From Mobula hypostoma (taxonomy: Eukaryota), in the NCBI RefSeq assembly GCF_963921235.1, contig NC_086108.1, positions 26,288,001 through 26,352,000 of the forward strand: a stretch of 64,000 bases of DNA, read 5' to 3'. Shown one piece after another: positions 2,173 through 62,069 of this stretch; position 1 is the first letter of the stretch; the number at the start of each line of letters is the position of its first letter. The position numbers were made by a program, and so were the translations under genes. A model generated the notes under the pieces. The model made no database searches. It was given only the letters and a program-made list of their open reading frames with translations, and was not told the origin of the DNA.

Positions 2173-3830
2173 CTCTACTTTGTCCTGTAGATAAACCTTG
2201 GTTTTCCACAGTCATTGTACGTCCTATTTTTGTGGTTGTTTGCAGTTTTAATGTGTACATTCAATAGGAAATAATAAAATATATCATATTAACATTCATC
2301 TGTGATAATGTTTTAGACAAACAAAAATATTCTGAGCAATTTTGCCAATTTTCACATTTTTAAATGAAGAAAACTGCCACAATTTGTTCCCAGCTATCTA
2401 TCGTACCTACATTCTTTTCATTTAAATACAAGAAAAGGTAACCATGAGACACACTCATGCTCACATATGCCATCCATATCATAGCATTTTTAATTAATAT
2501 GATTTACACACAGTGCCACGTTAATATCTTATCTAGTATGTGCAAATTTTTTTTTTCAGCACCATGTATTACAGACACTTCCCTCTGTAACTGAAACCTA
2601 AGCTTACTACCTATATTATAGTAAGCCTAATATGGGATAAATATTGGTTTCACCTCATCAATCAACAAAATATATTTCATTATTAAATAACAGATTTTGT
2701 TAATGTGTGCACTGAATTGAAACAAACTCGGACGATTTTGTATTTTTCATTCCTATTTTCTTATAAACTACTGCCAAATGAACATAATGAATTACAAGAG
2801 GTATCTTTTATTGACTTGTGTATATGTACTTTCTTATATTAATACAGGTAATTATATAAAGATTTTATAATTACCGGTTTTAAAGGTGTACAGACATTGA
2901 TAAATTGTCGGCCACCGCACCCTCCAATTTTTTGCATTCCTGAACATTCATATTGATAAAAATTGAAAACCTCAACTAAAAATAACCTTTACCAATCTAA
3001 CTTATTTTAAAAATAAAAATTGAATTCTACCAAGTGTAGGGAACCCTTTGGCAAACCACTTGTGCTTCATTTAAGATCGTATAGCTTCTTATGGATCCTG
3101 TGCCAGATTCCTGACTTGTTGAGTTAGTTGGCTCTTCCAATTTTGTACAATTTGGCACATTCTTAAATACTCCTTCAGATGGCCAAGCATTCTGAGAATG
3201 TATTACTATGAGACTGTATATCTGTGGATTCAGAGCCCTGCTTTGTACTGCTGTTTGTTCATTTCTAACTTCAATTTCCTACCCTACTGCAGGATTTACA
3301 AGGATGATGGAGCACATTAGTTGCTTTAGAAACAAGATTTGCAAGGACAACAGTTGTAACATCTTGCTAAATTTTAATCTAAAAAAACGCATCTCCCACC
3401 ATTAGAGAAGTGTATGCCCAGACACTTAACACATGCTTCCTAACAATGACAGTGAAAGCTAAGCTAATAAGACTTACCAACATGCAGTTTTATTTCACCA
3501 CATATACTGCATGACCTGCTAAGGGTTTCAGTCATTTTCTGCTTTTATTTCAGATTTATTCATGAGCAGATGTTTGCTTTTCAGTAATAAGAACTACATT
3601 TCTTAACGTTGATTTAATAGGAACTTTAGGGGTAATATTTTTGCACAAACCGTGATAAGAGCTGCCGGAGATCGTCATCCCCGTCAATATGCAAGAGCAT
3701 GTGGCTAGGAGGTGAAAGGTAAATACTGATGTATAAAGAATGAAAGATGAGGCAGAGGTCCAGAGGAGCTACTGCTGATGGTGCGGTACTGATCAGGCTT
3801 TGTTGAATTTGCATGGCAAGTGGATTCTGG

Positions 3831-4176
3831 AAACACAAAATAATCTGCAGATGCTGTGATCAAAGCAACACTTTCAGTACGTTGGTGGAACTCAGCAGGT
3901 CGGGCAGCATCAGTTAGAAACGGTGAGTTGACGTTTCGGGCCGGAACGTCAACTACCCATTGTTTTCAGGCTTATGATGTCAATGCTTCCCTTCCCCCAC
4001 CCCTTCGTCTTTCAAATTACTGGTCTTTCAACTGAAGCTACAAGCATTCTTCAAATCCTTCCCCATCTTTCATTCTTCAGTCCTGATGAAGGATTCCGGC
4101 CCGAAACGTTGACTCATCGTTTCCAACTGATGCTGCCCGACCTGCTGAGTTTATCCCGCGTACTGAAATTGTCCCT
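3831..4176. mobile_element. Fold-back mini-PLE (inverted pLTR pair) with 13-bp TSD
   Basis: Tailed pLTR end on - (3831-3946) and tail-less pLTR on + (to ~4172). Flanks are AAGTGGATTCTGG (3818-3830) and AAATGGATTCTGG (4177-4189). Confidence 0.8.
4079..4114 (+). ncRNA. Minimal type-I hammerhead ribozyme motif in PLE pLTR (best-preserved core)
   Basis: AGTC-CTGATGA-AGGATTCCGGCCC-GAAA-CG-TT-GACT: stem I AGTC/GACT, CUGAUGA and GAAA core, palindromic ACGT helix III, UH cleavage site. Confidence 0.7.
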
Positions 4177-4319
4177 AAATGGATTCTGGGTATTTCTGGT
4201 TATAATTGTTCCACTAAGATCAAAAATTTATATCAATGTCCTGGATGATGGTTATGAAAATCCTGAATATTGGTCTGTTACAGAACTTGCCTGCAAACCT
4301 GTTGGGGTTATTTATTCTA

Positions 4320-13572: not shown

Positions 13573-13680
13573 GGAGCGACACGGTATCGTAGCAGTCAGC
13601 ACGACGCTGTCACAACTCGAGGCATTGGAGTACATGGTTCAGTTCCAGCATCCTCTACAAAGCGTCTCTATACATCCTGC
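13573..13680 (+). mobile_element. 5' head of a tRNA-derived SINE running into the minisatellite
   Basis: GCGACACGGTATCGTAGCAGTCAGCACGACGCT...GGTTCAGTTCC (A and B boxes). Confidence 0.6.
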
Positions 13681-14358: not shown

Positions 14359-15342
14359 CTCCTGGCTGGATTTAACGTTTTATGCAAAAAGGTACAAAAG
14401 GGGTGTGAGTAAAAATTATTTTGTGCAGAGTGGTTATGATCAGAATCTCGTTCCCTCCATGTGTGAGAAACCCCAGTTAATTAAAGCTTTCAGGAGAGAA
14501 TTGGATGGGATAATTTGGTTGACCAGGGAAATAGCAGGAGAACTGGGACTGACTAAAATTCACTCCAACAAAACGCAACAGAATAAGTATACTTATTCTG
14601 CTGCATATATACAAACGTTTGTAGTTAATGATTGTTAAGTTCCATGCAGGAACAAAGCCATGTCTTCATCAGCCTTGATTTCTTTCTTTGACCAAAAACT
14701 TTGTACATTATTTAAACATTCAAATTCATCTAAGTAATTAAAATCCCTCAAAACAGCAACTTTCAAACAGTTATCAGAGTTTATATGGTGTAATAAATGT
14801 TTTCATAACTTCCAAAGTGCATCCAACCCCTCTAGCATTCCTGTAACCTGACAATAGGTCTAATGTTGAATCAAGTGGAGAGCTGGCAGGAGCAAACATC
14901 GAATATTCAGATCACTTCATGCTTAGCCAAAGCAAGTTGAGCTGTCACAGGTTCACTGCCGGCCTTTCCACTCAACTGTGTGTCATTTGGCTTGATTGGT
15001 CCTAATGGATATATTATTGATGTCAGATACAAAAGGAACCTCAATCTGTCAAATTCACACTTTTATTCATTGGAATTGTTGTTAATCATTTCCATATAAT
15101 GTGAAGGAAAACCAAAACACTATGAAGTAGCATGAAGTAGAATTTAGCAAGGACTTTATAACAGCTTAGTTTTCTCTTAAGATTTGTTTCCTAGGTTGAT
15201 TGAACAGATCTTCCTCAATTACACAAGGATAATATTATGTATTCTATTTAAATTATAAACACTACATGATAAGTACAACCAACTTTGTGAAAAATCACTG
15301 GTGTGGTATCAATTTACCTCTTAAACAGCTTAATTAGAACTT

Positions 15343-17392
15343 TCTCTCCAATTCTCACCTCACTCCTTCTGAACACACTGCTCTCCACTCTCTCCGCACT
15401 AATCCTAACCTCACCATCAAGCCTGCTGATAAGTGGGGGTGCTGTAGTAGTCTGGTGGACTGACCTCTCATTTGCTGAGGTGAGGTGTCAACTTTCAGAC
15501 ACCTCCTCTCACTTCCCCTCGAACAGGGCCTCACTAAGAAACACCAGGCCATTGTCTCCTGCACCATCACCACCTTTATTAACTTCGGAAATCTCCCATC
15601 CACTGCTCCCAACCTCAGAGTTTCCCGTATCCAGCTCTTCCCATTTCTACCTCCAACCCAAGATCCATAAACCTGAGTGTCTAGGTAGACCCATTGTTTC
15701 TGTCTGCTTCTACCCCACTGAACATGCCTGCATACCTCAACTATGTTTTATCTCCCGCTAGTTCAGTCCCTTCCTACCTATATCTGTGACACTTCACACA
15801 CTTATGACCATTTAAATGACTTTAAATTCCCTGGCACCAATCATCTGATTTTCACAATGGATGCCCAGACCCTATATACCCCCATCCCTGATCAGGAGGG
15901 CCTTAAAGCTCTCTGCTTCTTCCTGGACAACAAGCCCAAACAATTTGCTTCCAGTACCACACTCCTCTGCCTGGCAGATCTGGTTGTCACCCACAATAAT
16001 TTCTCCTTTGGTTCCTCCCGCTTCCTTCAAACTAAAGGTGTAGCTATGGGCAGTCGCATGGGTCCCAGCTAAGCCTGCCTTTTATTTGGCTACGAGGACT
16101 TCCCATGTTCCAAGCCTACACTGGTACCTCTCTCCAACATTTCCCATGCTAGATGGACAAATATATTGGTGCTGCTTCCCGCACAAATGCTGAACTCATC
16201 AATTTCATCATCTTTGCCTCCAAATTCTCTCAAATTTACTTGGTCCATTTCTGACACTTCTCTCCCCTTTCTTGGTCTCTCTATCTCCCTCTCTAGAGGC
16301 AGTCTATCTACTGACATCTTTTATAAGCCTACTGACTCTCACAGCTATCTGGACTATACCTCTTCCCGCCCTGTCACTTGTAAAAACGCCATCCCCTTCT
16401 TTCAGTTCCCCTGTCTCCACTGTATCTGCTCTCAGGATGAGGCTTCTCATTCCAGAACAACTGAGATGTCCTCCTTTTTCAAAAAAAAGGGCTTTTCTTC
16501 CTCCACTATCAACGCTGCCCTCAAGCCATCCTCCCGCTTCCACACCAAGTTCCTCTTGTCCTCTTACCCTCACATAACACACCTTGCTTATGGAACAAGT
16601 GTCACACCTGCCCCTACACCTCTTCCCTCACTACCATTCAGGGCCCCAAACAGTCCCTCCAGGTGAGGCTACACTTCACCTGTGAGTTGGTTGGGGTCAA
16701 CTATTGTATCCGGTGTTCCTGGTGAATCCCAACGTAGATTGGGAGACTACTTCGCCAAGCACCTTAGTTCCATCCAACGCAAAAAGGGGGATCTGCTGGT
16801 GGCCACCCATTTCAATTCTACTTCCAAATCCCATGCTGACATGTCACTCCATGCCCTCCTCTACTGCCAAAATAAGGCCACACACAGGCTGGAGGAGCAA
16901 CATCTATTTCATCTGGGTAGCTTCCAATCTGATGGCATGAACTTCAATTTCTTGAACGTCCAGTAACACCCCCACCTCTCCTTCACCATTCCCCATTCCT
17001 GTTTCTCTCTCTCACCTTACCTCCTTATCTGCCCATCGCCTCTTTCTTGTGCTCCTCTGCTTTCTCTTTCTTCCATGGTCTTCTCTCCTCTCCTCTCAGT
17101 TTCCCCCTTCTCCAGCCCTTTATCTCTTTCACCAATCAACTTCCCAGCTCTTTACTTCACCACATCTTCCGCTCCCGGTTTCATCTATCTCCTGCCACTT
17201 TGAAATTCTTCCTCCCTTCCCCCCACCTTTTTACTTTGAACTCCCCTTCCTTGCCAGTCCTGAGGAAGGGTCTCAGCCTGAAACGCCGATTCAGGCTGAC
17301 CTTTCCATAGATGCTGCTTGACCTGCTGAGTTTCTCCGGCATTTTGTGCGTGTTACTTTGGATATCCAGCATCTGCAGAGTTTCTTCTGTTT
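15343..17392 (+). mobile_element. Degraded Neptune-type PLE (RT + GIY-YIG + 3' pLTR), 13-bp TSD
   Basis: FYLQPKIHK..GRPIVS, MDAQTLYT.IP, QTKGVAMG, YKPTDSHSYL and GIY-YIG remnants with frameshifts. Hammerhead at 17256-17291. TSD TTAATTAGAACTT (15330-15342) / TTAATTAGAGCTT (17393-17405). Confidence 0.92.
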
Positions 17393-17539
17393 TTAATTAG
17401 AGCTTCTTTGCAATCGTAATTTGCCACATGATTGAAAAATTCTTTACACATGACAGCAAGTTTTTTTTAAATCAGGGGTACAAAGGGAGGTCTTGCCATT
17501 GGAAGAGTGAATTCTTCTGTATGGCATTTGGACGCAAAT

Positions 17540-20388: not shown

Positions 20389-20395
20389 ATATCTA

Positions 20396-22710: not shown

Positions 22711-23380
22711 AGACATATTAAAGCAACTTTACTACCTTTATGTATGGTGGTGCTGTGTCTCTGAAGTGCATGTTTCACAGTGTAATAAAGCTTCCTGAGA
22801 AAAAGCAGTCCCCAGGCGCGGTACTCCTTGTTTCCAAAGTTACCCTAATGAGCCTGCATCTCGTTTGCAGTCAATCAAAACATCATCTAATTAAATCATA
22901 AAATTCTCATTCAGCTATCTGCAATCCAATTAGAAATAAAGTTCTTCCTTTTGCAAATCTTCAAGCTACAGTATTTGTTTGAAATTCAGTTAAGGGTTTT
23001 AGAAGTGATAGTCCATAGATGGGAAAGCAGTTAGCATATTAACCAGGGCTGCATTGACTGAAATATCAATTTATTTTCTTTGTTGAGCTCGAGGTGATTT
23101 TTCTTTTGATTTAATATTGTCATGACGAGCAGTCAAGAAGGCCATCTCTGAGCCAATGAGGATTACAAGATTTTCCCTAGAAGCTTGACTTGCCAGCAAT
23201 TTGGCAGAAGAATTTTCTTCTGTTTCCAGCAACAGTCTAAACAATAATGGATTAAATGATTTAATCTAATATTTAAGGAGAAGAGGATACAATTTATAGC
23301 ACAAGGAACTGAATAAATGCTTAATCTGTCATATTAACGTTCTAGGTTGAAAAATATAGAAAAGGCCTGGTAGGTTGTCA

Positions 23381-23609
23381 CAAACAAAAGAAAATCTGCA
23401 GATGCTAGAAATCCAGGCAACACACACAAAATGCTAGAGGAACTCAGCAGGCCAGACAGCATCTATGGAAAAGAGTGATCAGTCAATTTTTCAGGCTGAG
23501 ACCCTTCATCAGGACTGATGATGAAGGGTCTCGGCCCAAAATGTCGTATGTTACTCTTTTTCACAGATACTGCCTGGCCTGCCAAGTTCCTCCAGCATTT
23601 TGAGTGTGT
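23381..23609. mobile_element. Fold-back mini-PLE with back-to-back hammerhead remnants, inside a Rex1 remnant
   Basis: ...GAGACCCTTCATCAGGAC-TGATG-ATGAAGGGTCTC... Degenerate 13-bp TSD TGGTAGGTTGTCA / CAGCAGTTTGTCA. Confidence 0.8.
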
Positions 23610-23622
23610 CAGCAGTTTGTCA

Positions 23623-24120: not shown

Positions 24121-24472
24121 ATGGGCAGCTCTTGTTAATGGATAGAAGTGATTAATAGATGCTCATGCCATTTTCAGTTTGCTGAAATCTGGATTTCAAA
24201 GAGGCTGTGTATGGTGACATGGGATCATTCTTTACCTTAAACCATTCATTTCTTCCCATGAGCCAGAGCAGACATAGAGGGGCAGGAAATTATAAATTTC
24301 AAAATAGAGGCTATATAGGAGCTCACTTAGGCCATTTTCCCATCAAGTCTTCTCCACCATTTGATCATGGCTGCAAACACGACAAATTCTGCAGATGCTG
24401 GAAATTCAAGCAACACACATCAAAGTTGCTGGTGAACGCAGCAGGCCAGGCAGCATCTCTAGGAAGAGGTAC

Positions 24473-24508
24473 AGCCGACGCTTCAGGCCAAGACTCTTCG
24501 TCAGGAAT
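24473..24508 (-). ncRNA. Hammerhead motif of the 3' pLTR (GAAA>GAAG lesion)
   Basis: Minus strand ATTC-CTGACGA-AGAGTCTTGGCCT-GAAG-CG-TC-GGCT. Confidence 0.6.
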
Positions 24509-24802
24509 AACTGAAGGAAGAGCTAGTAAGAGATTTGAAAGTGGGAGGGGGAGGGGGAGATCCAAAATGATAGGAGAAGACAGGAGGGGGAAGGATGGAG
24601 CCAAGAGCTGGACAAGTGATTGGCAAAAGGGATATGAGAGGATCATGGAACAGGAGGCCCAGGGAGAAGGAAAGGTGAGGGGGGGGGGACCCAGAGGATG
24701 GGCAAGGGGTACAGTCAGAGAGACAGAGGGAGAAAAAGGAGAGTGAGAGAAAGAATGTATATATAAATAAATAACGGATGGGTACGAGGGCGAGGTGGGG
24801 CA

Positions 24803-27034
24803 TTAGCGGAAGTTAGAGAAGTCAATGTTCATGCCATCAGGTTGGAGGCTACCCAGACGGAATATAAGGTGTTGTTCCTCCAACCTGAGTGTGGCTTCAT
24901 CTTTACAGTAGAGGAGGTCGTGGATAGACATATCAGAATGGGAATGGGATGTGGAATAAAAATGTGTGGCCACTGGGAGATCCTGCTTTCTCTGGCGGAC
25001 GGAGCGTAGGTGTTCAGCAAAACTATCTCCCAGACTGCGTCGGGTCTCGCCATTATATAGAAGGCCACATCGGGAGAACCGGATGCAGTATATCACCCCA
25101 GCCGACTCACAGGTGAAGTGTCACCTCACCTGGAAGGACTGTCTGGGGCCCTGAATGGTGGTAATGGAGGAAGTGTAAGGGCATGTGTAGCACTTGTTCC
25201 GCTTACAAGGATAAGTGCCGGGAGGGAGATCAGTGGGGAGAGATGGGGGGTACGAATGGACAAGGGAGTCGCGTGGGGAGCGATTCCTGCGGAAAGCAGA
25301 GAGAAGTGGGGAGGGAAAGATGTGCTTAGTGGTGGGATCCCGTTGGAGGTGGCGGAAGTTACGGAGAATAATATGTTGGACCCAGAGGCTGGTGGGGTGG
25401 TAGGTGAGGACCAGGGGAACCCTATTTCTAGTGGGGTGGTGGGAGGATGGAGTGAGAGCAGATGTGTGTGAAATGGGGGAGATGCGTTTGAGAGCAGAGT
25501 TGATGGTGGAGGAAGAGAAGCCCTTTTCTTTCAAAAAGGAGGACATCTCCCTCATCCTGGAATGAAAAGCCTCATCCTGAGAGCAGATGCGGCGGAGATG
25601 GAGGAATTGCGAGAAGGGGATGGCATTTTTGCAACAGACAGGGTGAGTAGAGGAATAGTCCAGATAGCTGTGAGAGTCAGTAGGCTTATAGTAGACATCA
25701 GTAGATAAGCTGTCTCCAGAGATACAGACAGAAAGATCTAGAAAGGGGAGGAAGGTGTCAGAAATGGGCCAGGTAAACTTGAGGGCAGGGTGAAAGTTGG
25801 AGGCAAAGTTAGTAAAGTCAACGAGCTCAGCGCGCATGCAGGAAGCAGCACCAATGCAGTCATCAATGTAGCGAAGGAAAAGTGGGGGACGGATACCAGA
25901 ATAGGTTTGGAACATAGATTGTTCCAGAAAGCCAATAAAAAGGCAGGCATAGCTAGGATCCTTATGGGTGCCCATAGCTACACCTTTAGTTTGGAAGAAG
26001 TGGGAGGAGCCAAAGGAGATATTATTAAGAGTAAGGACTAATTCCACTAGACGGAGCAGAGTGGAGGTAGAGGGGAACTGATTAGGTCTGGAATCCAAAA
26101 AGAAGTGGAGAGCTTTGAGACCTTCCTGATGGGGGATGGAAGTATATAGGGACTGGACATCCAAGGTGAAAATAAAGTGGTGGGGGCCAGGGAACTTAAA
26201 ATCATCGAAAAGTTTAAGAGCGTGAGAAGTGTCACGAATATAGGTCAGAAGGGATTGAGCAAGGGCTGATAAAACCGTGTCGAGGTATGCAGAAACGAGT
26301 TCGGTGGGGCAGGAGCAAGCTGAGACAATAGGTCTGCCAGGACAGGCAGGTTTGTGGATCTTGGGTAGGAGGTAGAAACGGGAAGTGCGGGGTGTGGGAA
26401 CTATAAGGTTGGTAGCAGTGGATGGGAGATCCCCTGAGTGGATTAAGTCGGTGATGGTGTGGGAGACAATGGCCTGGTGCTCCTTAGTGGGGTCACGATC
26501 GAGGGGTAAATAGGAGGAGGTATCCAGGAGTTGTCGCTGTGCCTCGGCAAGGTAGAGGTCAGTATGCCAGACTACAACAGCAACCCCCTTATCGGCAGGT
26601 TTTATAGTAAGGTTAGGATTAGTGCGGAGGGAGTGGAGAGCAGAGCGTTCGGAAGGAGTGAGGTTGGAATGGGGACAAGGTGCGGTGAAGTCGAGAAGGT
26701 TGATGTCCCGTCGGCAGTTAGTAATAAAGAGATCCAGAGCAGGCAGAAGACCAGAGCGGGGTGTCCATGAAGAGGAGGAGGGTTGAAGACAGGAGAAAGG
26801 ATCATCGGTGGGGGTGGAAGAGTCCTTGCCGAAGAAGTAGGCTCGGAGACGGAGACGGCAGAAGAACAGTTCCACGTCATGGCGAACATGGAACTCGCTG
26901 AAGTGTGGGCGAAGGGGGACAAAGGTGAGGCCCTTACTGAGGACAGAGCATTCTGCCTCAGACAGTTGAAGGTCGGGGAGGATGGTAAAGACCCGGCACG
27001 GATGAGAGCTGGTATCACTGTCCTTTTTCTCCAT
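24803..27034 (-). pseudogene. PLE RT-GIY-YIG polyprotein (~743 codons) with a single in-frame TGA at 25121-25123
   Basis: IKPADKG, FYLLPKIHK, GRPIVS, LDVQSLYTSIP, QTKGVAMG, RYIDD, LPFLD, Cys linker CKRNKCYTC, VIYC...LLYNGET.R GIY-YIG. The two predicted ORFs are in the same frame. Confidence 0.93.
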
Positions 27035-27255
27035 CTGTCCCTCTGACTATACCCCTTGTCCATCCTCTGGGTTTTCCTCCCCCTCCCCCTTTTCCTTCTC
27101 CCTGGGCCTTCTGTCCCATGATCCTCTTATATCCCTTTTGCCAATCACCTGTCCAGCTCTTGGCTCCATCCCTCCCCCTCCTGTCTTCTCCTATCATTTT
27201 AGATAGCCCTCTCCCCCTCCCACTTTCAAATCTCTTACTAGCTCTTCCTTCAGTT

Positions 27256-27291
27256 AGTCCTAACGAAGGGTCTCGGCCTGAAACGTCGACT
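27256..27291 (+). ncRNA. Hammerhead motif of the inverted pLTR (CTGA>CTAA lesion)
   Basis: AGTC-CTAACGA-AGGGTCTCGGCCT-GAAA-CG-TC-GACT. Confidence 0.6.
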
Positions 27292-27367
27292 GTACCTCTT
27301 CCTAGAGATGCTGCCTGGCCTGCTGCGTTCGCCAGCAACTTTGATGTGCGTTGCTTGATCATGGCTG

Positions 27368-44852: not shown

Positions 44853-45201
44853 CGTATCTAATTTAATTGGTCACTTTGATGCAGCACAAGCTACGCTGAA
44901 AACGCAGTTCAGGGCGGGGTGCTACACACATGAGCACTCGCAGAAAGAACGGAACCAAAACCCCGCAACCCGGAAACAATCTCTCTTTACAAACAGCTTT
45001 GTAGTAAAAGTATTGCTATATTACCCTTATCCTAATCAGTATTACTTATTTTTATAATGCTCACATTACAACAGTATTTGTGTGTTTATTTTTGATTTTT
45101 TTCGGGACCTACTGGGAAAGTCTCAAAGATCGACCGGTCGATCACAATCGACGGGTTGGCGACCCCTACTGTATATAATGAAGCTGCATAAGACTTAGTG
45201 A

Positions 45202-45333
45202 CAACAGGAATTCTGCAGATGCTGGAAATTCAAGCAACACACATCAAAGTTGCTGGTGAACGCAGCAGGCCAAGCAGCATCTATAGGAAGAGGCGCAGTC
45301 GACGTTTCAGGCCGAGACTTTGATGTGTGTTGC
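45202..45333 (-). mobile_element. 132-bp mini-PLE (tailed pLTR end plus ~15-nt inverted stub) with perfect 13-bp TSD
   Basis: TAAGACTTAGTGA at 45189-45201 and 45334-45346; same pLTR subfamily as 24374-27358. Confidence 0.9.
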
Positions 45334-48309
45334 TAAGACTTAGTGAGACCTAATATGGAGTATTGTGTGTAATTTTGGTCACCTACCTACAGGAAAGATT
45401 AAATAGATTGAAAGAGTACAGAGAAAATTTACAAGGATGTTGCCAGGACTGGAGGACCTGAGTAATTAGGAAAGATGGAATAGGTTAGAACTTTATTCCC
45501 TAGAACATAGAAGATTGAGGGAAGGTTTGATAGAGGCATACAAAATTACGAGTCGTATAAATAGGGTAAATGAAAGCAGGGTCCTTCTGCTGAGGTTGGC
45601 TAAAACTGCAACTAGAGGTCATGGGTTAAGAGTGAAATGTTTAGGTGGAACATTAGAAATGAAAAGAAATGCTGCAATATGTTGTAAATTATAGCCTAAA
45701 TGGGATTTGGGAGAACAAGTATAGAAGTTACTAAAGTTATATATTCATAGAGCTAAAATTTAAAAGAAATTTAAACTTAATTTTTAGGATAGAATTGTAA
45801 TGTTGGGAAGAGAAGCAAAACATATGTAGAACTTTGGATGAAACAACTTGGAGAACTGATTGAGATTCTGACCATTGTACTTCAGGTTATGTTAACAAGC
45901 TTGGTCCATTATGCTGGCTCTTCCTTTCCCTCCTTGCAGAAGAAAGACAAAGTGCAGTAAGGTACCTACATCCATCTTGAAATTAACAGCTGCAGACAAT
46001 GAGGTCATGGAGCTGACTAGCATAATTTAATGTGTAGATATTGGAAAGAGGGCTATGCGGTACAATATTCATCGACCGTGCATGTAATATTCACTCATAT
46101 TCACTCATGCACTTGTATACCCTGAAGTATTCTTGTCCAAATAGTTCCAATTGATTAAACTTCCATGGACATCAGCCAAGACAACATAATGTCATCAGCG
46201 GAAGTCAATCATTCCAAGAATGCACTGTCACAGGATCAATGCAGATATTTTAGTTCAATGGATATGGTAGACAATTGGAAGTAAGCATTGGCAAATTGTG
46301 GAGACAGGAAGAACGTTGAAGGACTGTCCAAATTCGATTCAGCTTTGTGCAAATGCTATACCTTGTGAGTAGGTAATTCAAAATGAGAATGACACTGATA
46401 TAAACCTTCCTATTTGGCCAAGCTTTAATAACTGACCTGATCTGCATGTGGCAGAATGTTTTCTGGTAACACTTCTGTGCACATGTCCTTTGCACATTAA
46501 TTAATTTAAAAATGCTACATGAAGCAAGTTGTTTGGATGATGTTTCATTAGAAAATATTCTTGTAAAATATTCCATTTATTATCTTCTATCTGACAGACC
46601 AAGAATTTCCTCAATCTGAGTTTCTTGCTCTTTTGTGGGTTTGGAAATTGTCCAGCACCATTGCTTTCTCAGGTTCAAATTACATTTCCTCCTTCACCAG
46701 TGTTCAGCGCCGTTTCATATGCTGTCTCTGTCAATTCTACCGCTGTTACCCTAATGCACCTCCTACCCAAACAAAACAACTAGTTGGAATCTCAATGTCA
46801 ATCGATCCATCATTGCTTAAATCCTGGCTCAAACACCAAAAACAAAAGTAAATTCCAGCATTGATATTTTGATTCTCTTGTGAAATCAGTAAATCTAAAT
46901 CAGACACTACTCTCTGACAGAAAAGCAAGCATAATTAACTAACTAAAAAGTTCTTGGAACTTCTCTGAAATTAATTAGATGTGGATGAGCCGGTGGTTGG
47001 AAGGAGGTGTGAATAATTGGACTACATCAAGTTCATTCTGAAAACTAAATGCACAGTTCATTTCTTACTAAATTAGACACTAATAATCTTTTATTACATG
47101 GAAAGAAGAAACAGCTGGATAATTCAGCTTTTTTTTTGCTATACAATCTGTCAGCATCATACAAAGAAAGCAACAGATAATTAGAGAATAATTCTGGCAA
47201 TGCTACAAGGTGGTGGTTCTCCAACGAATAAAGCACTGTCAGTGCCAGGTAACTTCTGAAACACTATAGTGGATTTATATTAAATTCTTATGAATTTTTT
47301 GAATTGTCATCTGGCAGCCATTTCTTAAAAGATAATTGATAGATTCAGATCTGCACTATATTATTGCATTACATCTTTGTTCTCTGGCCTGCATCCACCT
47401 ATCAATGAAGAGATGTTGTTATAAAGTATAACAAAGCAGTCTAAATACAGTGTAGAGTTAACATTGGCAAACTCACACTGAATAAATGTGAAAGAGTGGA
47501 GAGGAAAAACCTATGATGAGGTTTCTCATCAGGCGTTTTGTCAGGAATTGCTTCCAAAAGTGAAAATGTTTATCAGTATTATCCAAATACAGAGGGAAAT
47601 CTAACGGATGGCACTTCAAAATAATATGTAGCTGATCCTTCAGAGGAAAAAAAATCCATTCCTTATTTAATCAATTATGGCAACAACAATAAATGGTGTC
47701 TTTAATGCTGCAAATATCCTGGGGATGTCACAGAAGCAATTATTGAACAAAATTTGGAATATAAAGCAATTAGCATTCTTCAGTATTAAAGTTAACACTG
47801 AAAGATGTTCACAAGTAGATGGTATATCTTGCACACTGACTCGTAAGTCCTATGTTTTCTGGTTGGAAGTTCCACAGTGTTGAGAGAGAGCATTGTGATC
47901 TTTGCAGTCGAGCAAAGACAGTGGGAGGTATTTTAAGAGCCCTGTGGCAAGCAGCATTTTATTTATTATGGTTATCATAACTCAGTAACAAAATTGTCAG
48001 GCACTACTGTACTGAATTCTTACCTAAAATTAGTTTCATATGAAGAAAAGTGAGAATAAATTAGACTTAAATCTAGAAAAATGACATTTTCCCAATTTGG
48101 TTAAAAGGACAATTTTATCTGATCGACGTAGAGACAGCCATTGGAATACATTCCTCAAATGTTTGCAATTAATGTATTGCAATGCAGCACTGTCCAAAAA
48201 TTTAATTCAGAGAGATCTTCTCCCAGAACTGCCCAAATCACATTCACACCAAGACCATTAAACAGTGCACTGAGAGTCATCTCTCAAGTAATTCTTTTGT
48301 ATTGGTGGC

Positions 48310-53153: not shown

Positions 53154-54525
53154 CATAGAACCATAGAACCATAGAAACTACAGCACAGAAACAGGCCTTT
53201 TGGCCCCTCTTGGCTGTGCCGAACCATTTTCTGCCTAGTCCCACTGACCTGCACACGGACCATATCCCTCCATACACCTCCCATCCATGTATCTGTCCAA
53301 TTTATTCTTAAATGTTAAAAAAGAACCCGCATTTACCACCTCGTCTGGCAGCTCATTCCATACTCCCACCACTCTCTGTGTGAAGAAGCTCCCCCTAATG
53401 TTCCCTTTAAACTTTTTCCCCCTCATCCTTAATCCATGTCCTCTGGTTTTTTTCTCCCCTTGCCTCAGTGGAAAAAGCCTGCTTGCATTCACTCTATCTA
53501 TACCCATCATAATTTTATATACCTCTATCAAATCTCCCCTCATTCTTCTACGCTCCAGGGAATAAAGTCCTAACCTATTCAATCTTTCTCTGTAACTGAG
53601 TTTCTCAAGTCCCGGCAACATCCTTGTAAACCTTCTCTGCACTCTTTCAACCTTATTTATATCCTTCCTGTAATTTGGTGACCAAAACTGAACACAGTAC
53701 TCCAGATTCGGCCTCACCAATATCTTATACAACCTCATCATAACATTCCAGCTCTTATACTCAATACTTCGATTAATAAAGGCCAATGTACCAACAGCTC
53801 TCTTTACGACCCTATCTACCTGTGACAAGACTTTTAGGGAATTTTGTATCTGTATTCCCAGATCCCTCTGTTCCACTGCACTCCTCAGTGCCTTACCATT
53901 AACCCTGTATGTTCTACCTTGGTTTGTCCTTCCAACATGCAATACCTCACACTTGTCTGTATTAATCTCCATCTGCCATTTTTCAGCCCATTTTTCCAGC
54001 TGGTCCCAGTCCCTCTGCAGGCTCTGAAAACCTTCCTCACTGTCTACTACACCTCCAATCTTTGTATCATCAGCAAATTTGCTGATCCAATTTACCACAT
54101 TATCATCCAGATCATTGATATAGATGACAAATAACAATGGACCCAGCACTGATCCCTGTGGCACACCACTAGTCACAGGCCTCCACTCAGAGAAGCAATT
54201 CTCTACCACCACTCTCTGGCTTCTTCCATCGAGCCAATGTCTAATCCAATTTACCACCTCTCCATGTATACCTAGCAACTGAATTTTCCTAACTAATCTC
54301 CCATGCGGGACCTTGTCAAAGGCCTTACTGAAGTCCATGTAGACAATATCCACTGCCTTCCCTTCATCCACTTTCCTGGTAACCTCCTCAAAAAACTCTA
54401 ACAGATTGGTCAAACATGACCTACCACGCACAAAGCCATGTTGACTCTCCCTAATAAGCCCCTGTCTATCCAAATGCTTGTAGATTCTGTCTCTTAGTAC
54501 TCCCCTCCAATAACTTACCTACTAC
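53154..54525 (-). mobile_element. Young 5'-truncated CR1 LINE with (GTTCTATG)n tail
   Basis: Uninterrupted RT-to-C-terminus ORF; octamer tail at 53154-53177. Confidence 0.95.
53235..54473 (-). pseudogene. CR1 ORF2 reverse transcriptase, 412-aa open C-terminal segment
   Basis: SQHGF..GRSCLTNL, YMDFSKAFDKVPH, SGVPQGSVLGPLLF, KFADDTK, RPNLEYCVQFWSP, TRGH. No endonuclease or promoter (truncated). Confidence 0.93.
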
Positions 54526-57298
54526 TGGGCACTAGTCTCCCCAGCATCGAGCACGTCTTCAAAAGATGATACCTCAGAAGGACTGCACTCATCATTAAGG
54601 ATCCCCATTACCCTGGACATACCCTCTTCTCATTTCTACAATCAAGTAGGAGGTACAGGAGCCTGAAGACACAGACTCAACATTTTAGGAACAAGTTCTT
54701 CCCTTCCACCATCAGATTTCTGACTGGGCAATGAATCTATATGCACTACTTCTCTATTTTTTTGCACTACTTATTTAAATTTATATATGTGTCTGATTAT
54801 AGTTTATAGGTTTTTTTTTATTATAACTATGTATTGCACTGTGCTACTGCCATAAAACAAAAAATGTCATGCTATCAGCCAGTGATATTAAACCAGATTC
54901 TCATTATGATTAAAATAAGGCATGTGGTTACTCTCACAGACAAGGTGAAGGAGAAACCCAAGGCCTTCTAGAGATGTATTAAAAGCAAGAGGATAGCAAG
55001 TGACAGAATTGGTCCTCCTGAAGATCAGAGTAGTAATTTATGCATGGAGCCAAAAAGATGGAGGTAATCTTAAATGGAATTCTTAGCATCTGTATTTACT
55101 GGGGAGATGGACACAGAGTCTATAGTTGTGAGGCAAAGCAGCAGTGGGATTATGGACCGTAAACAGATTACAGAGGAGGAAGTGTTTGCTGTCGTGAGGC
55201 AAATTAGGGCAGACAAATCCCCAGGGCTTGATCATGTGTCCCTTCAGACCTTGTGAGAGGCTAGTGCAAAATTTGCAGGGCCCTAGGAGAGATATCTAAA
55301 ATCCCTGAGTCACAGGTGAATTGTAAGCAAGATGGCTAATGTTGTTTCAGTGTTGAAGAATAAGTCAGAAAATTTTAGGCCAGTGAGCCTGATTTCAGTA
55401 GTGGGAAAGTTATTGGAAGGTCTTCTAAGGGCCCAGATATATAAGTATTTCAAAAGCCAGGGAGTGATGAGGGATAGTCAACATAGTTTTGTGTTTGGCA
55501 GATCATGTCTAAACAACCTTACAGAATTTTCTTGAGGAAGTTACCAGGAAAGTCGACAAAGGCAAGGCAGTGGATGTTGTCTGCGTGGACTTTCGCAAGG
55601 CCTTTCACAAGATCTTGCATGGGAGGTTGGTCGAGGAGCTTCAATCATTTGAAGGTAAAAAATTGGATTAGACATTGGCAGAGAGTGATAGTTCATGGTT
55701 TCCTCCCTGACTGAAGGCCTGTGAACAGTGGTGTGCCACAGGGATAATTGTTGTTTGTCATCTATATCAATGATCTGGATGATAATATGGTAAATTGGAT
55801 CAGCAAGTTTGCGGATGACACCAAGATTGGGGGTATTATGGACAGCTATCAAAGCTTGGAGTGTGATCTGGACCATTTGAAAGCATGAGGTGAAAAGTAG
55901 CAGATGGAATTAATGCAGACAAGTATAAGGTATTGCACTTTGGGCAGATAAACCAGGAAAGGACTTGAAGAGTGAACAGCAAGTTACCAAGCAGTGAGGT
56001 AGAACTGAGGGATCTGGGAATACAGATCCATAAATCCTTAAAGTGGCACCACAGTAGATAAGGTCGTAGGTGTAGGGGCTTGGTGGTTAGGCAGTTAGAT
56101 TGGAAGAGAAGGAGGAGTTTCATGCTAAATTCACAACTAATGGACATCTGCATGGAGCATACACAAATAATACATGGAACATTGGTTACCGGCAGGAAAT
56201 TGAAATTTTTGGCAAATTTATATGTCATCTATAATAGACCAGCACATTTTGAGGGGAAAAAAAACACCTTTTTCCTCTGGAATCCTTTGTGCTGACACAG
56301 AAGATCAGGTTAAAATGGGAAGGAGAGCAACATCTTTATGGAGCAATTACGTAGACAACTTAAATTGACCACTTCCCCAAGTCCATTGAGAAGATGAAGA
56401 TGGTCTTCAAAAATCATTACTGGTGACTGAGTATGGAGACTATACGAGTCACACTCAATGCCAAAATGGCCTGTCAGATGTTTCAGGTCTGTCAAGTCAT
56501 GTTTACTGTCAGTCTCTTTGGCAATGGTGAATTTGGCTCCAGAAATGTAATTAGCTACACACATATTATCTTTATTTCTTTTCCTTGTAGTCTAGTAGTC
56601 TAATTAACAATGAAGCGTAAGACAAAGGTTAAATCAAATTGACACCCACTGGAAGGTCAATTGCAGACGCCTCAGAATATACAAAAGTTTGAACATATGC
56701 TGCATCAAGTTTAAGGACAGCTTCTGTTCTGCTGTTATAAGACTCTTGAAAGGACCTGTTATATGCTCAGGATGATAACTGAATTTCTTAATCTACCACA
56801 TCATGGAACTTGAATTATATTTCTCTCCCTGAACTGCACTTCCCCTGAAACTGTAACACCATCAACTGCATTCTGTTTTGCATTCTTTTGAATCATGGAA
56901 TCATAAAGCAATATAGTATTGATATGGGCCGTTTGGCCCAATTAATCCATGGAGAAAAAAGCACCCAGCTAGTCCGAGTATCTTGTTTTTGCCCATATCC
57001 CTCTAAGCTCTTCCATTTTATGTACATATCTAAATGCTTCTTATATGATACCAATGTGCCTGCTTCAAAAACTTCTACCAGCTTATTCTATGCATTAGCC
57101 ACTTCCTTGTTATTTGGAATAGCATCAGTGAGTAAAAATAAATCAAATATCTTTGCACAACTTTCTCTCTAGCCTCCCACAAAGTCCAAGAATGCACTGG
57201 GTCAGGCTTTATGGATTTATTCACCTTATTCACCGAAAAGTTGCAAATACTTCTTCCTTGATAATATAAATTTTTTCCAAAGCATCTTCACTTTTTCC

Positions 57299-57652
57299 CC
57301 ACAAAATGCTGGAGAAACTCAGTAAGTCAAGGGGAAAATGAAGGGGAATAAACAGACAATGTTTTGGGCCTAGACCATTCATTGGAATTGGCAAGAAAAG
57401 GGCAAAGGTCAGAATAAGAAGATGGAGGGAGGAGTGGAAGGAAGACCAGTTAGCAGGTAATCGGTGAGACTGGGTGGGGAAGGGGGAAACTAATAGGAAA
57501 GAACGGTGTACCATGGAAGAAAGGGAAGAAGGAGAGGGTGATGAGCTGGTGAGAGTTTGGGGACAACACATTGACTGTTTATTCCAATCCATAGATGCTG
57601 AAGTATGTGTGCTTCTCAAGATTTCCAACATCTGCAAAATCTCTTGTGTTTA
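57299..57652. mobile_element. Fold-back PLE pLTR pair
   Basis: Minus pLTR at 57299-~57545; plus pLTR end with tail to ~57652. Confidence 0.7.
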
Positions 57653-58132
57653 CCATTTGTTTTCCTTATCTCTTTATCAACCATGATTTTTCTCCTCTGT
57701 AAGAATTCCACCCATTTGCTGAAGCTCAAGAAATAGGCAGCCTTCTTGATCTCTAAGCTGATCCATAGTTTCCATTTTGACTGTTTACAGCTATGGGACT
57801 TCTTGGGATTTTCCTTAACCTAACCAGATGCAACTTGTGCCCTCTCTTTGCCTTCCTGATTTCACTCATAAGAGTACTCTATCTTTATCATGAAGGGATT
57901 TGCTCAAACTTGACCTCCTAAATCCTCCTTTTCCTTGAACAGAGTCTCAATATCTCTTGTTAGCCAAGGTTTCATAACTTGTCAGGTTTACCTTTCACCC
58001 TAAAAGGAACTTGCTACTCCTAGACACTTGCAATCAGATTGTTAAAAGCCTCCACTTGCATTTCACTACTTTTCCTTTCAAACAGACTCACCCTTAAACT
58101 CTGCTAGATCCTGTGTAATTTCCTCAATACTA

Positions 58133-58376
58133 GACCTGCTCCACTTGGTGACATCTGTGTAGGGATGGAGTTCGTATTCTGGAGATGGAAAGAACAACCA
58201 GAAGACAGTAGAAGAGGGCCAGGAGAAATGCAGCCCTGGTTGCCACCACTACTACATATACATGTCCCACCTGCAATAGAGCTTGTGGGTCCAGGATAGG
58301 ACTGTATAGTCATCAAAGATCTCACCGTTAAAGGAGTGGACGTCGTCATCGGATTTCGATGGACAACCGAAGAAGA
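58133..58376 (+). mobile_element. RTE LINE extreme 3' end (absent from the ORF track)
   Basis: STW*HLCRDGV..LEMER...YTCPTCNRACGSRIGLYSHQRSHR*, then GTCATCGGATTTCGATGGACAACCGAAGAAGA. Flanked by GACCTGCTCCA / GACCTGTTCCA. Confidence 0.85.
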
Positions 58377-58557
58377 CCTGTTCCAGTTTAGGACCATAAT
58401 CTGTGGATCTGTCTTACCCTTTTCCATCGCTGTCTTAAAACTAAATAGAATTATGGTCACTAGAACCAAAGTGCTTTATGACTGCCACTTCAGTTACTGC
58501 TGCCTTGCCTTGTTCACTAAGGAGATTCACTTTTGCACCAAACTGAGTAGGGCTCTC

Positions 58558-60270
58558 AGCAACACTCACAACACGCTGAAGAAACTCAGCAGGTCAGGCA
58601 ACATCCGTGGAAACGATCAGTCAATGTTTTGGGCCGGGACCCTTCATCCCTTCGTCAGGACTGAAGAGGGAAGGGGCAGAGGCCCTATAAAGAAGGTGGG
58701 GGGAGGGTGCGAAGGAGAAGGCTGGAAGGTGCCAGGAGAAAAACCAGTAAGGGGAAAGATAAAGGGGTGGCGGAGGGGATAGGCAGGAAAGGTGAAGAAG
58801 GAAAATGGGAAAACACAGTGGGTAGTAGAATGTCTCTACACCTCTTCTATTTATCCCTGTAAGCGTAAGTGCTACACCTGTCCCTATACCTCCTCCCTCT
58901 TACTTACCCTTGGACCAGGACCTCACCAAAAAACATCAAACCTTCACTGCCCTGATCAACTCCGGAGACCTTCCATCCTCAGCCACTAAACTCATAATTC
59001 TGCTCGGTTTTACCTCCTCCCCAAGCCTGATGTCCCGGTAGACCCACAGTTTCTGCCTGCTCCTGCCCCACTGAACTTGTATCTGCCTACCTGGACTCCA
59101 TTTTGTCACCCATAGTTCAGTCCCTCCCCACCTACATCCGGGATACATCCCATGCCCTCCACCTCTTCAATAACTTACAGTTCCCCGGTCCTAACCACTT
59201 CATTTTCACTATGGACGTCCGATCCTTATACACCTCCATTCTCCATCAAGAAGGCCTCAAAGCCCTCCACTACTTTCTGGACAATAGACCTCACCAGGTA
59301 CCCACCACCACTACCCTCCTCCGGTTGGCGGAACTGGTACTCACACTTAATAACTTCTCTTTTGGCTCTTCCCACTTTCTTCAGACCAAGGGTGTAGCTA
59401 TGGGCACTCACGTGGGACGCAGCTACGCCTGCCTCTTCGCTGGTTATGTGGAACAGTCTGTGCTCCAAACCTATTCTGGTACTTCTCCCCAACTTTTCCT
59501 TCGGTACATTGACGACTACATTGGTGCTGCTTCCTGCACCTATGCTGAGCTCGTCAATTTTATCGACTTTACTTCAAACTTCCACCCAGCCCTCAAATTC
59601 AGTTGGTCAATCTCGGACACTTCTCTCCTCTTTCTCGATCTCTCGGTCTCCATCTCTGGAGACAGACTGTCCACTGACATCTTCTACAATCTCACTGACT
59701 CTCATAACTAACTCAACTATACCTCTTTCCACCCTGCCACATGCAAAAATGTCATTCGCTATTCCGAGTTCCTCCGTCTCCGCCGAATCTGCCCCCAGGA
59801 TGAGGCTTTCTGTTCCAGGACATCTCAAATATCCTCTTTCTTTAAGGATCGTGGTTTCCCTTCTGCCGTCGTCAATGATGCCCTCACCCGCATCTCCTCC
59901 ATTTCCCGCACTCCGGCCCTCACCCCATCCTCCCGCCACCACAACAGGGATAGCGTTCCCCTTGTCCTCACCTACCACTCCACTAGCATCCGGATCCAGC
60001 ACATTATCCTCCGCAACTTCCGCCACCTTCAACAGGACCCCACCACTAAGCACATCTTTCCCTCTCCACCCCTCTCCACTTTCCGCAGGGATCATTTCAT
60101 CCGTGACTCCCTGGTCCACACGTCCCTTCCCATGGATCTCCCACCTGGCACTTATCCCTGTAAGTGTAAGTGTAACACCTGTCCCTACACCTCCTCTCTG
60201 CCGGACCTGCTGAGTTCCTCCAGCGTGTTGTGAGTGTTGCTTTGACCCCAGCATCTGCAGATTACTTTGT
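58558..60270 (+). mobile_element. Rearranged PLE: inverted tail-less pLTR, RT, pLTR tail; GIY-YIG deleted; 13-14-bp TSD
   Basis: MDVRSLYTSI, QTKGVAMG, RYIDD. TGAGTAGGGCTCTC at 58544-58557 and 60270-60283. Confidence 0.92.
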
Positions 60271-62069
60271 GAGTAGGGCTCTCTATGTATCAACTCAGAA
60301 AACCTTCTTGGACGCATCTCACAAATTCCACCCCAGTCAGAACCTTAACACTCTGGATGGCTCAATCAATATAATGGAAATTAAAATCTCCCACTAATAC
60401 AACCCTGTTATTCTTACAACTGTGAGATAAATTTCTCTACAGACCTAATCCTCAAGTTCCCACTGACTAATGATGGGGGGTGGAGGTATGTGGGGAGATA
60501 TCTATAGTACAAAGCCACTAGAGGGACACTCCCTTTTTTCCCTTCTAGGTTCTGTCTATTTGGTCTTTCTGGATAATCCCCAAATATGTTACCCCTAAGT
60601 AATGCTGTTTCTTCCTCCTAATCAAAAAAGGCTGCACCCACTCCTTGCTTAGCTGTATCTCTGTTACACCCTTAGCATCTGTATCTTGGAATATTGAGAT
60701 GCCAATCCTGCTCTTCTTTCGGCTGGTTTTTGTATGACTTTTTAATTAACAAGCAGCCTTACCTAGCCTTTCTGAATATTGAAGACCACCGACACCAGGT
60801 TCACACAAAGCCATAGCTGTTCAGATAATTCTCTAGGTCTTCCCTCTTGTAGTAGCTTGTCGTTAGCTGTTGGAATGAATCCATTTTGTTCACTGCCAAT
60901 GTGTGTAGTTAATGATACCCCAGAAAGCTAATCAGGTGTAAGTAAGTGAAATTACAAATTTCATCCTTTGCAGAACTACTATTAATACAGCACCAGCGAA
61001 ATGATTGATTTTTAATGGCCACTATACTCCGTTAGAAATACCCGTTATCAGACCCTCAGACAATGAAGGCTTCAGCCATGTCAGCAGAATGTAGTACCAA
61101 ATATTTAAAAATTGCTTCACTTTTCTCCACTTATGTCACAGTTGAACTAATGGAGTGCAGCCTTTCTGAAATAAAGGTTCCACTACATTACCAATGAAGA
61201 GTTTAAATTTATATACATGAAGTAAGCCACAATCAAAAGTACACATCCAGCATGGGAGATTCTCCCTTTTACTGTGTGCATGGGCCTTTCATACTGACCT
61301 TAGAGAAATTTCACCTTCAAATCATCGCAATACTCGCAAAGTTGCCGCAATCTGCAAACAGATTGTGTCCATTATATTACAAACCAACCACTTTTCATGT
61401 GAGGATCTGGCTCAAAGGGACTCCAGGGAACAAAAAGGAATTGGTATTCTGCAATGTTTCACACAAAGACTTTTAAAAAAAAGCAAATATGTATTTTTAT
61501 CATTAAATCAATTTAAAGCCAAGTCAAGCCTAAGGTTTTGTTTTCTGACAAACAACAATGTTTAGAATACTCTCAAACCTTTGACGTGACAGAGTTGAAG
61601 AATGCTATTAGGCTAATCTTGTTGTGTAGTAGCTCTTTGCTGAAAATAACAGGTCCATTTGAACCCCTTAATCCAGAACTACCTTCTGCTTCTATTCTTT
61701 TTTTTCTCACTGCTCCTTCTTAGATGAAATCACTTTGGCTTCCTAAAGCAAGGTATGAACATGAAAGCCAGAAATGTTTCAGAGTGTAGTATAGCAACTT
61801 GTGAATTCACCAATGAAAATAGTAGCTCAGATGGGTGGATAATTTTGAAACCATGAGTGGCTTCCTATCAATCTGGGCTATTCTCAGCAGCCCCGCAAAA
61901 CGGCTGTTCCTAATATATACATCATAAACATAATCCCATTCCTCAACTGTCCTGTTTTATATCCTTTTGGACTACTCCAATATACATCAAGTCGAACACC
62001 CACCACAACATCTCTATTAAGACTACCTAATAAAGTGTTAGGTATTCCCAGCAGAGTCATGCACATTTT

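Follow-up and report, generated by a model that had tools for sequence, protein, structure and literature searches.

The 64,000-nt stretch of Mobula hypostoma DNA analysed here (the window) carries several Penelope-like insertions flanked by direct repeats of about 13 bp, which raises the question of whether the GIY-YIG endonuclease of these elements cuts the two target strands at a defined distance. How long a target-site duplication (TSD) is in EN+ Penelope-like elements (PLEs) is described as variable (PMC8557442, PMC6696364), and the Neptune paper ascribes this to variable second-strand cleavage and notes a microsatellite bias (PMC8557442). No description of a near-constant TSD length for Penelope elements was found in the open literature searched.

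Penelope-like insertions in the ray window

The initial annotation had reported direct repeats of about 13 bp at six insertions of 132 bp to ~3 kb. All six pairs were recovered at the same positions with the same match scores (Table 1), and the inserts measure from 132 bp (45202-45333) to 2,981 bp (24374-27354). Their assignment to one family did not hold, as the terminal ~95 nt of the six copies are 72-96% identical and only those at 24361 and 45189 are close.

Table 1. Features of the six insertions (positions within the window)
Feature	Position	Strand	Remarks
TSD copies, 12/13 match	3818..3830 left, 4177..4189 right	+	
Two-armed PLE remnant	3831..4176	.	ends from pLTR/tail profile
Tail-bearing pLTR arm of 3831..4176	3831-3961	-	
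Tail-less pLTR arm of 3831..4176		+	ends at usual tail-less position
Hammerhead-core-like CTGATGA..GAAA in that tail-less arm	~4083-4107	+	
TSD copies, 12/13 match	15330..15342 left, 17393..17405 right	+	
5'-truncated PLE: decayed RT and EN, pLTR, tail	15343..17392	+	without inverted arm
Weak candidate TSD copies, 9/13 match	23368..23380 left, 23610..23622 right	+	
Short two-armed pLTR unit	23381..23609	.	tail arm on -, tail-less arm on +
TSD copies, 13/13 match	24361..24373 left, 27355..27367 right	+	host is a repeat
Best-preserved copy: 3' UTR, pLTR, tail	24374..24802	-	
Best-preserved copy: 5'-truncated ORF	24803..27046	-	RT, thumb, C-x4-C-x2-C linker, GIY-YIG/CCHH-type endonuclease
Best-preserved copy: inverted tail-less arm	27015..27354	+	91.6% identity to 3' arm over 344 bp
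TSD copies, 13/13 match	45189..45201 left, 45334..45346 right	+	inside CR1-type LINE
132-bp unit	45202..45333	.	tail-bearing pLTR piece on -, inverted tail-less arm ~16 nt
TSD copies, 14/14 match	58544..58557 left, 60270..60283 right	+	
Truncated unit	58558..60269		RT (+), truncated and internally deleted; pLTR end with tail; inverted tail-less arm on -

Judged by their sequence features, the inserts are Neptune-type Penelope-like retrotransposons. A PLE-type RT lies in a single ORF, with a weak RVT_1 match in the window copy. When 8,000 candidates were scored, 1,693 came out as homologs at E<=1e-20; those named include Mobula at 85% and Chiloscyllium at 67% identity, with coral and echinoderm homologs at ~45-50%. 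The endonuclease of the window copy itself has no Pfam match; its region aligns at 48% identity (E 3e-25) with the part of P0017 that Pfam recognises as GIY-YIG, and it is of the CCHH type, but with one Cys and the YIG motif altered. The pLTR, the inverted arm and a one-sided tail of 30-40 nt are all present in the window elements. In the window ORF, as in its homologs, RT and EN are joined by a C-x4-C-x2-C linker, a Neptune trait (CX2-5CxxC) that, together with the coral and echinoderm homologs, suggests the Neptune placement; Nematis likewise carries such a linker (PMC8557442). Hammerhead core letters are present in the pLTR, an Rfam search of the window gave no ribozyme match, and pLTR folds were not better than those of shuffles. 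The ORF at 24803..27046 has a single in-frame stop (25121-25123) and decayed catalytic motifs, and the 64-kb window contains no intact copy; open Neptune frames that cover most of the profile are present in G001. The ray pLTR and tail DNA patterns were not found in the viral, metagenome or genome contigs scanned, and a protein scan of viral contigs confirmed no relative.

Of the window's 14 candidate units, two have a right end in common; one fixed rule was run on all of them. Three have exact repeats (13, 13 and 14 bp), two match at 12/13 and one at 9/13, while the remaining eight show no TSD, in keeping with the earlier remark that some copies lack a recognisable one. Exact lengths by this rule are 13, 13, 14, 10 (3818) and 9 (15330, reaching 13 with one mismatch), and at most 6 in the other nine, set against a longest exact repeat of 8 among 180 cross-paired window flanks. 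The fixed-register chance is p 8e-7 for a 12/13 match and p 1e-3 for 9/13; with a few registers allowed, the 23368 pair is only suggestive as a TSD. Every one of the six pairs is flush with an element end, and these ends were set independently by the pLTR and tail profile. The 24361 word opens with TTGA, which also continues the pLTR, giving a length of 9-13 from the sequence at that site.

Duplication length, flanks and arms across families

Relatives were sampled from animal (invertebrate) DNA in a public MAG, yielding 43 inverted units picked by arm orientation and not by TSD, with the exception of three seeds (17, 15 and 12 bp). Exact repeats of 13-17 bp flank 23 of the 43 (13 bp in 13 units, 14 in five, 15 in three, 16 and 17 in one each), and the longest exact repeat in 780 shuffled pairs is 10. 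A fixed length of 13 with chance extension predicts 12.6/6.6/2.6/0.9/0.3 units for 13-17 bp, close to the 13/5/3/1/1 observed; a fixed base of 11 or 12 does not fit. In fifteen units the exact repeat does not exceed 8 bp; five of these reach 11-14 once one mismatch is allowed.

A TSD of ~13 bp is common to Neptune, a Penelope/Poseidon-type family and a non-autonomous tRNA-headed family, and is thus not special to the ray family. Nor is the value universal among hammerhead-bearing families: other such families (25 units) centre on 12, with lengths of 12 in five, 13 in three, 11 in three, 10, 16 and 19 in one each, and <=9 in eleven. Similar duplications flank units that lack an arm, namely the 15330 insertion and four relatives (L233, 11 bp; L235, 13; L238, 15; L205, 13). 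The candidate at L055 5945-7319, which has a flush 8-bp repeat and lacks a tail, is probably a DNA transposon and was left out. A narrow, family-typical duplication is shown: 13, sometimes 14 bp in the ray, 13 in the Neptune and tRNA-headed families of the invertebrate, and ~12 in others. The defined ~13-nt stagger proposed in the initial annotation is accordingly supported by related families in another animal, with the qualification that other families centre on 12.

The bases just outside each TSD copy read 5'-A|G-n-Y-3', on one strand at one edge and on the other strand at the other, making a mirror-symmetric pair of half-sites. At +1, G occupies 19 of 26 half-sites against 6.2 expected after conditioning (p 2e-8), a pyrimidine stands at +3 in 25/26, and G-n-Y is complete in 18/26. 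Both sides contribute, with G in 8/13 and Y in 13/13 on the tail side, and G in 11/13 and Y in 12/13 on the tail-less side. Ray half-sites have G-n-Y in 5/12 (p ~0.004; profile p ~0.0005), with a weak fit for the three exact ray sites taken alone (p 0.065) and a poor one for the 24361 site. Motif score did not consistently place a 13-nt register within the 14-17-bp repeats, a 13 register coming first in 3/10, and this placement is not taken as support. The presumed cut is tolerant, as had been suggested, but not sequence-blind, and the earlier description of the targets as unrelated holds only in part, since this weak symmetric motif is common to their flanks. Microsatellites are the target at none of the six window sites and in one of 18 NepA units.

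In most units both outer ends are element 3' ends, one tailed and one tail-less; a single tail is present in 40/44 units and two tails in none. Non-consensus bases are common to both arms of a unit ~3.5 times more often than to arms of different units, and at many inner junctions the sequence is a perfect palindrome.

Whether empty sites already hold both repeat copies, a point raised by the initial annotation, was looked at by proxies. A CR1-type LINE paralog at 53235-54518 carries the 13-bp word of the 45189 site once, as does a host-repeat paralog near 48853-48949 for the 24361 site; within the window, no host-repeat paralog was found spanning 3818, 15330, 23368 or 58544. A contig of organism C, a related species, is without the 58558-60269 element, its alignment resuming exactly at 60270. 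This contig comparison covered 44700-60700 of the window and 4 of 19 listed runs, with many paralog matches; none of its pieces was informative across 45189, since repeats lie on both sides of that site, and it gave no empty allele in organism B or an own-species run among the matches listed. The paralogs and organism C behave as a true target-site duplication should.

A candidate double nick and its alternatives

The best explanation overall, to which we give a probability of about 0.65, is that the GIY-YIG endonuclease of a Neptune-type PLE makes a double nick ~13 nt apart that yields the TSD. The element's own enzyme, probably acting as a two-fold symmetric dimer, would nick both strands and leave 3' overhangs; 13 nt is roughly one helical turn added to a stagger of 2-3 nt across the minor groove. 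Reverse transcription would start at the tail site from one 3' end. The second 3' end may prime at the upstream site of the same RNA, or of an RNA of the same locus, giving the inverted arm, or may be plainly joined to truncated cDNA, giving no arm; fill-in of the overhangs would then produce the duplication. A narrow, nuclease-set stagger with symmetric preference is probable in its own right; if the inverted arm is in addition ascribed to two-ended priming, the chances are even. It is tempting to extend this to EN+ Penelope integration at large, as a concerted double nick by a symmetric dimer (12-14 nt between the nicks, each strand carrying A|G-n-Y) with both overhangs priming at two internal start sites, although such a generalization is tentative, at somewhat below even odds. 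Counting against a fixed stagger, the ray offers only three exact cases, and 8/14 ray units lack a TSD, as 15/43 invertebrate units lack an exact repeat above 8 bp. The centring of other families on 12, the rotifer TSDs of 8, 9 and 10 bp (PMC3846280) and the ATT preference of the anole protein weigh on the same side.

Somewhat unlikely, yet the strongest competitor, is a fixed stagger with a single priming nick; the cDNA would then fold back on itself where a short palindrome allows, be copied up to a point just short of the tail and be joined to the second overhang. Self-priming has been proposed from such palindromes (PMC3846280), and the single tail in most units agrees with it. Fold-back explains the arm-shared variants and palindromic junctions equally well, and the shared-variant counts do not separate it from twin priming. 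Set against it are the direct initiation in vitro at the tail-less site on both strands (PMC11167929) and the consideration that cDNA pairs of like sequence can also join only at palindromes.

LINE-like sequential nicking, in which one protein nicks and primes and the second cut follows later at a distance given by footprint or host repair, would need no dimer and is a little less likely still. Peaked TSDs in LINE clades (PMC4245944), the second-strand cleavage after TPRT described by Craig et al. (PMC8557442), and the equal TSD length of arm-less insertions all favour it; the identical half-site on both strands argues against a host nuclease, but not against the same enzyme acting twice.

An ascertainment effect, whereby ray TSDs are broad (8-17 bp) and cases near 13 were hand-picked, draws on the small number of exact ray cases and is improbable: the fixed rule gave no exact 11, 12 or >14 among the window units, and the invertebrate units, chosen without regard to TSD apart from the seeds, still peak at 13. 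That the repeats pre-existed or match by chance is scarcely credible given null maxima of 8 and 10 and host-repeat paralogs carrying the word once, even if the organism C evidence consists of alignment extents and not of the single word copy itself, and the 23368 pair is weak.

Second-strand cutting and the origin of the inverted arm and tail are called open in PMC8557442 and PMC11167929, and the length and half-site bear on both. They set a definite expectation for the in vitro assay already in use, nicks in pairs with 13 nt between them at A|G-n-Y, and provide a rule by which annotators may locate PLE boundaries and spot non-coding elements that PLEs mobilise. If the concerted double nick is true, TSD length would be a fixed, family-typical signature, as in DNA transposons, and a trait common to invertebrates through cartilaginous fish, lent in trans to the tRNA-headed tandem element. 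Use as an integration tool is speculative, because specificity is weak and the window has no intact copy.

Relation to known systems

LINEs employ an AP-type endonuclease and poly(A) priming, and the parts of an L1 inversion come from different stretches of the RNA; in the present units it is one and the same pLTR that both arms repeat. The two systems share an element-set second-strand position and inverted inserts with peaked TSDs: 13-15 bp for L1 (range 10-20), 10-12 for RTE and 12-13 for Nimb (range 10-15) (PMC4245944). Peaked length, put forward initially as distinctive of the ray elements, loses weight because these LINEs show it too.

Among PLEs, a biochemical parallel is PAc, a Poseidon element of Anolis carolinensis, whose protein in vitro cuts both strands and extends them, begins reverse transcription at two internal sites that bound the tail, and was modelled as a dimer (PMC11167929). 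The paired RT start sites, the cleavage and extension of both strands and the predicted dimer parallel what is proposed here. PAc belongs to another clade and prefers ATT, as opposed to A|G-n-Y here; the text of PMC11167929 does not give its nick spacing or TSD length.

The Adineta vaga elements Pen2a_Av, Pen2 and Pen3a resemble the units described here in their inverted pLTRs and one-sided tail (31-bp there), with a TSD confirmed by an empty allele (PMC3846280). Their TSDs of 8, 9 and 10 bp are single-case lengths, in contrast to the length distribution and cut motif given here. Compared with the Neptune clade as portrayed in PMC8557442, TSD length is narrowly peaked, most targets are non-microsatellite, and the flanks have a symmetric preference. 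Where EN+ PLEs have been described as variable in TSD length, the present units thus show a narrow peak at 13 (~12 in other families), a descriptive trait rather than a basis for classification.

Flanking repeats and their empty sites in the ray window

All six flanking repeat pairs that the initial annotation ascribed to one Penelope-like element (PLE) family lie where it placed them, with the match counts it gave. A profile of the pseudo-LTR (pLTR) arm and its one-sided tail yielded 31 matches in the window and 14 candidate units, two with a common right end. Under a single fixed rule, exact repeats range from 9 to 14 bp in five units (table) and reach at most 6 bp in the remaining nine, 23368 among them, against a longest exact repeat of 8 in 180 cross-paired flanks. 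On these lengths, five pairs are convincing and one is suggestive, whereas eight older units have no recognisable target-site duplication (TSD), as had been said of older copies.

Several subfamilies are represented among the six copies, whose last ~95 nt are 72-96% identical. The best of them, at 24374-27354, retains a 5'-truncated minus-strand ORF with reverse transcriptase (RT), a C-x4-C-x2-C linker, an endonuclease and one stop; the endonuclease is 48% identical to the Pfam GIY-YIG region of a homolog, and named homologs include those of Mobula (85%), Hypanus (72%), Chiloscyllium (67%) and corals and echinoderms (about 45-50%). The cysteine linker between RT and endonuclease is ascribed to Neptune and Nematis in the available text of PMC8557442. 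In five of the six copies an element 3' end faces outward on each side; one of these ends bears the tail and the other stops near GTGTTGC(T). Four copies agree on this stop within one base, and 23368 ends a few bases earlier. At window 57651 and 60241, paralogous contigs terminate in their hundreds (453 at the tail end in X7, with an AT-rich flank consensus; 542 in X1 near the tail-less end), which is consistent with two preferred element ends genome-wide. The 58558-60269 element has lost its endonuclease and its hammerhead region to an internal deletion; a linker piece is duplicated in it.

The 45189 unit sits inside a CR1-type LINE, and its modelled pre-insertion site is collinear with a second CR1 copy (53235-54518) that holds the repeat word once, scoring 152 under the one-copy model and 143 in the two-copy version. 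The host of the 24361 unit is also a repeat, with a paralog near 48853-48949 containing the word once in a weaker alignment (score 49). Contigs from four of 19 listed runs were further compared with window 44700-60700. In organism C, a related species, a contig of 4,108 nt (two runs of one sample) aligns to 57467-58146 and takes up the alignment again precisely at 60270, where the right TSD copy starts. Since the match resumes after 154 nt instead of the 2,123 of the window, the element is absent from this contig; another ~243 nt of flank are different as well, and a single copy of the word there is deduced rather than read.

Features of the window and of related contigs (L-numbers)
Sequence	Position	Feature	Remark
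Window	3818	repeat pair, left start	exact 10; 12/13 by eye
Window	13546-14253	tandem array	46-bp period
Window	15330	repeat pair, left start	exact 9; 13 if one mismatch allowed
Window	18753-20045	LINE RT remnant	
Window	23368	repeat pair, left start	9/13 by eye
Window	24361	repeat pair, left start	exact 13
Window	35245-35808	Tc1-type transposase piece	
Window	43060-43629	zinc-finger piece	typical of hAT-like elements
Window	44636-44755	near-perfect hairpin, MITE-like	sub-threshold Rfam microRNA match, probably spurious
Window	45189	repeat pair, left start	exact 13
Window	53235-54518	LINE RT remnant	
Window	58544	repeat pair, left start	exact 14
Window	58851-58896	duplicated linker piece	~45 bp
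L055	5945-7319	inverted-repeat element, probably a DNA transposon	flush 8-bp duplication
L062	4583-4929	similar to tRNA-headed units	
L111	5411-7171	Neptune unit, two tail-less ends	flanks continue as perfect inverted repeat, no TSD
L241-L256, L082, L101, L108, L139, L211 (G001)	L082: 6060-6970	tRNA-headed units	

Duplication length in related elements

Relatives were collected by protein scans (the best 80 of 444 confirmed metagenome stretches, plus seven loci from genome contigs) and by selecting 160 contigs or stretches with hammerhead-core, ORF or pLTR matches; 164 sequences (1.6 Mb) were analysed. G001, a public bacterial MAG with many contaminating contigs from an animal host, probably a cnidarian, has 154 matches to the PLE profile. 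Three families were seeded by units already displaying repeats of 17, 15 and 12 bp: NepA (Neptune), PenB (linker-less, of Penelope/Poseidon type) and a non-coding tRNA-headed tandem family. Outward-facing arm pairs defined 47 units, of which 43 remained after removal of three at contig edges and one in a microsatellite.

Exact repeats in these 43 units measure 13 bp in 13 cases, 14 in five, 15 in three, and 16 and 17 in one each; shorter ones comprise 12 (two), 11 (two), 10 (one) and at most 8 bp (15, five of which reach 11-14 with one mismatch allowed), against a maximum of 10 in 780 cross pairs. A fixed length of 13 with chance extension predicts 12.6, 6.6, 2.6, 0.9 and 0.3 units at 13-17 bp (observed 13, 5, 3, 1 and 1), and base lengths of 11 or 12 fail to fit. 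It should be noted that the peak leans on the tRNA-headed family, which contributes eight of the 13 exact-13 units (8/22, against 4/17 in NepA and 1/4 in PenB). In four short NepA copies that lack the inverted arm, the repeats measure 11, 13, 15 and 13 bp; for the remaining arm-less copies with a tail, it proved impossible to connect a repeat to a 5' boundary.

Other hammerhead-bearing families, taken over all loci, gave 31 units, reduced to 25 by excluding three at edges and three microsatellite-like ones. Their lengths differ (12 in five, 13 in three, 11 in three, single cases of 10, 16 and 19, and at most 9 in 11; maximum of 10 in 200 null pairs), so that TSD length is family-typical within about 11-14 bp without being universal.

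Flank preference and the mechanism of insertion

The narrow duplication length is accompanied by a symmetric preference in the flanks. When the 13 invertebrate sites with an exact 13-bp repeat are folded onto the nicked strand, the resulting 26 half-sites favour 5'-A|G-n-Y-3', where the bar marks the duplication edge. Immediately outside it, G occurs in 19 against 6.2 expected after conditioning (p 2e-8); the third outside base is a pyrimidine in 25 half-sites, and A is the last base inside in 16. Both sides contribute: on the tail side G is present in 8/13 and Y in 13/13, on the tail-less side G in 11/13 and Y in 12/13. Neither the duplication nor priming microhomology can produce a preference at outside positions. 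Among 12 ray half-sites picked before the motif was known, G-n-Y occurs in five (background 0.097, p 0.004), with p about 0.0005 for the outside-only profile; the three exact ray sites by themselves give p 0.065. Post hoc, the third base from the overhang 3' end is a pyrimidine in 12/12 ray half-sites, a position that is A-rich in the invertebrate set.

One and the same nuclease probably nicks both strands about 13 nt apart, leaving 3' overhangs, both of which may then prime, using a single RNA or RNAs from the same locus. A single tail is found in 40/44 units and two tails in none of the 44. Non-consensus bases common to both arms number 2.67 per 100 nt within units versus 0.76 across units in NepA, and 3.19 versus 0.93 in the tRNA-headed one. 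At the 21 flush tail-less ends, the mean junction microhomology is 1.7 nt. A strong rival for the inverted arm is fold-back of a single cDNA, proposed for PLEs in the available part of PMC3846280; it fits the palindromic inner junctions and addresses the arm, not the stagger. A less likely alternative is that a single protein nicks the two strands in turn, a scheme argued for in LINEs. The defined ~13-nt, sequence-tolerant cut suggested initially is partly supported and broadened: the peak at 13 recurs in relatives, but length varies over 11-14 by family and the flanks carry a symmetric preference.

The tRNA-headed element combines a head resembling tRNA (51.9 bits in Rfam) and a ~299-bp tandem unit (L243) with a PLE-style inverted arm, a one-sided tail, 13-bp TSDs and the A|G-n-Y half-site; its tail has a short motif in common with the Neptune tail. 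The element is probably SINE-like and moved by a PLE; a full-text literature search found no description of it.

Relation to known Penelope-like elements

For Penelope, TSDs in a range of roughly 10-14 bp are quoted, which, if so, would reduce the novelty of the length, not of the motif. Full-text literature searches found neither a PLE TSD histogram nor a symmetric cut motif in the papers covered; lengths may be given in the original Penelope publications and in Repbase reports. Both are likewise absent from the accessible portions of PMC9977147, PMC4209133, PMC9033089, PMC5718144, PMC12910113, PMC4522978 and bioRxiv 10.64898/2026.07.22.740005. As far as the available sections go, inverted arms, a tail and short TSDs are standard PLE traits (PMC3846280, PMC8557442, PMC2377424, PMC8969392), with TSDs of 8, 9 and 10 bp in PMC3846280 and a length termed variable in PMC8557442 and PMC6696364; for LINEs, element-specific peaks of TSD length are established (PMC4245944). 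The two ends of the window copies match the two RT start sites bounding the tail that excerpts of PMC11167929 describe for a PLE in vitro. The elements are of a known kind, with an integration footprint sharper and more symmetric than described in the literature examined.
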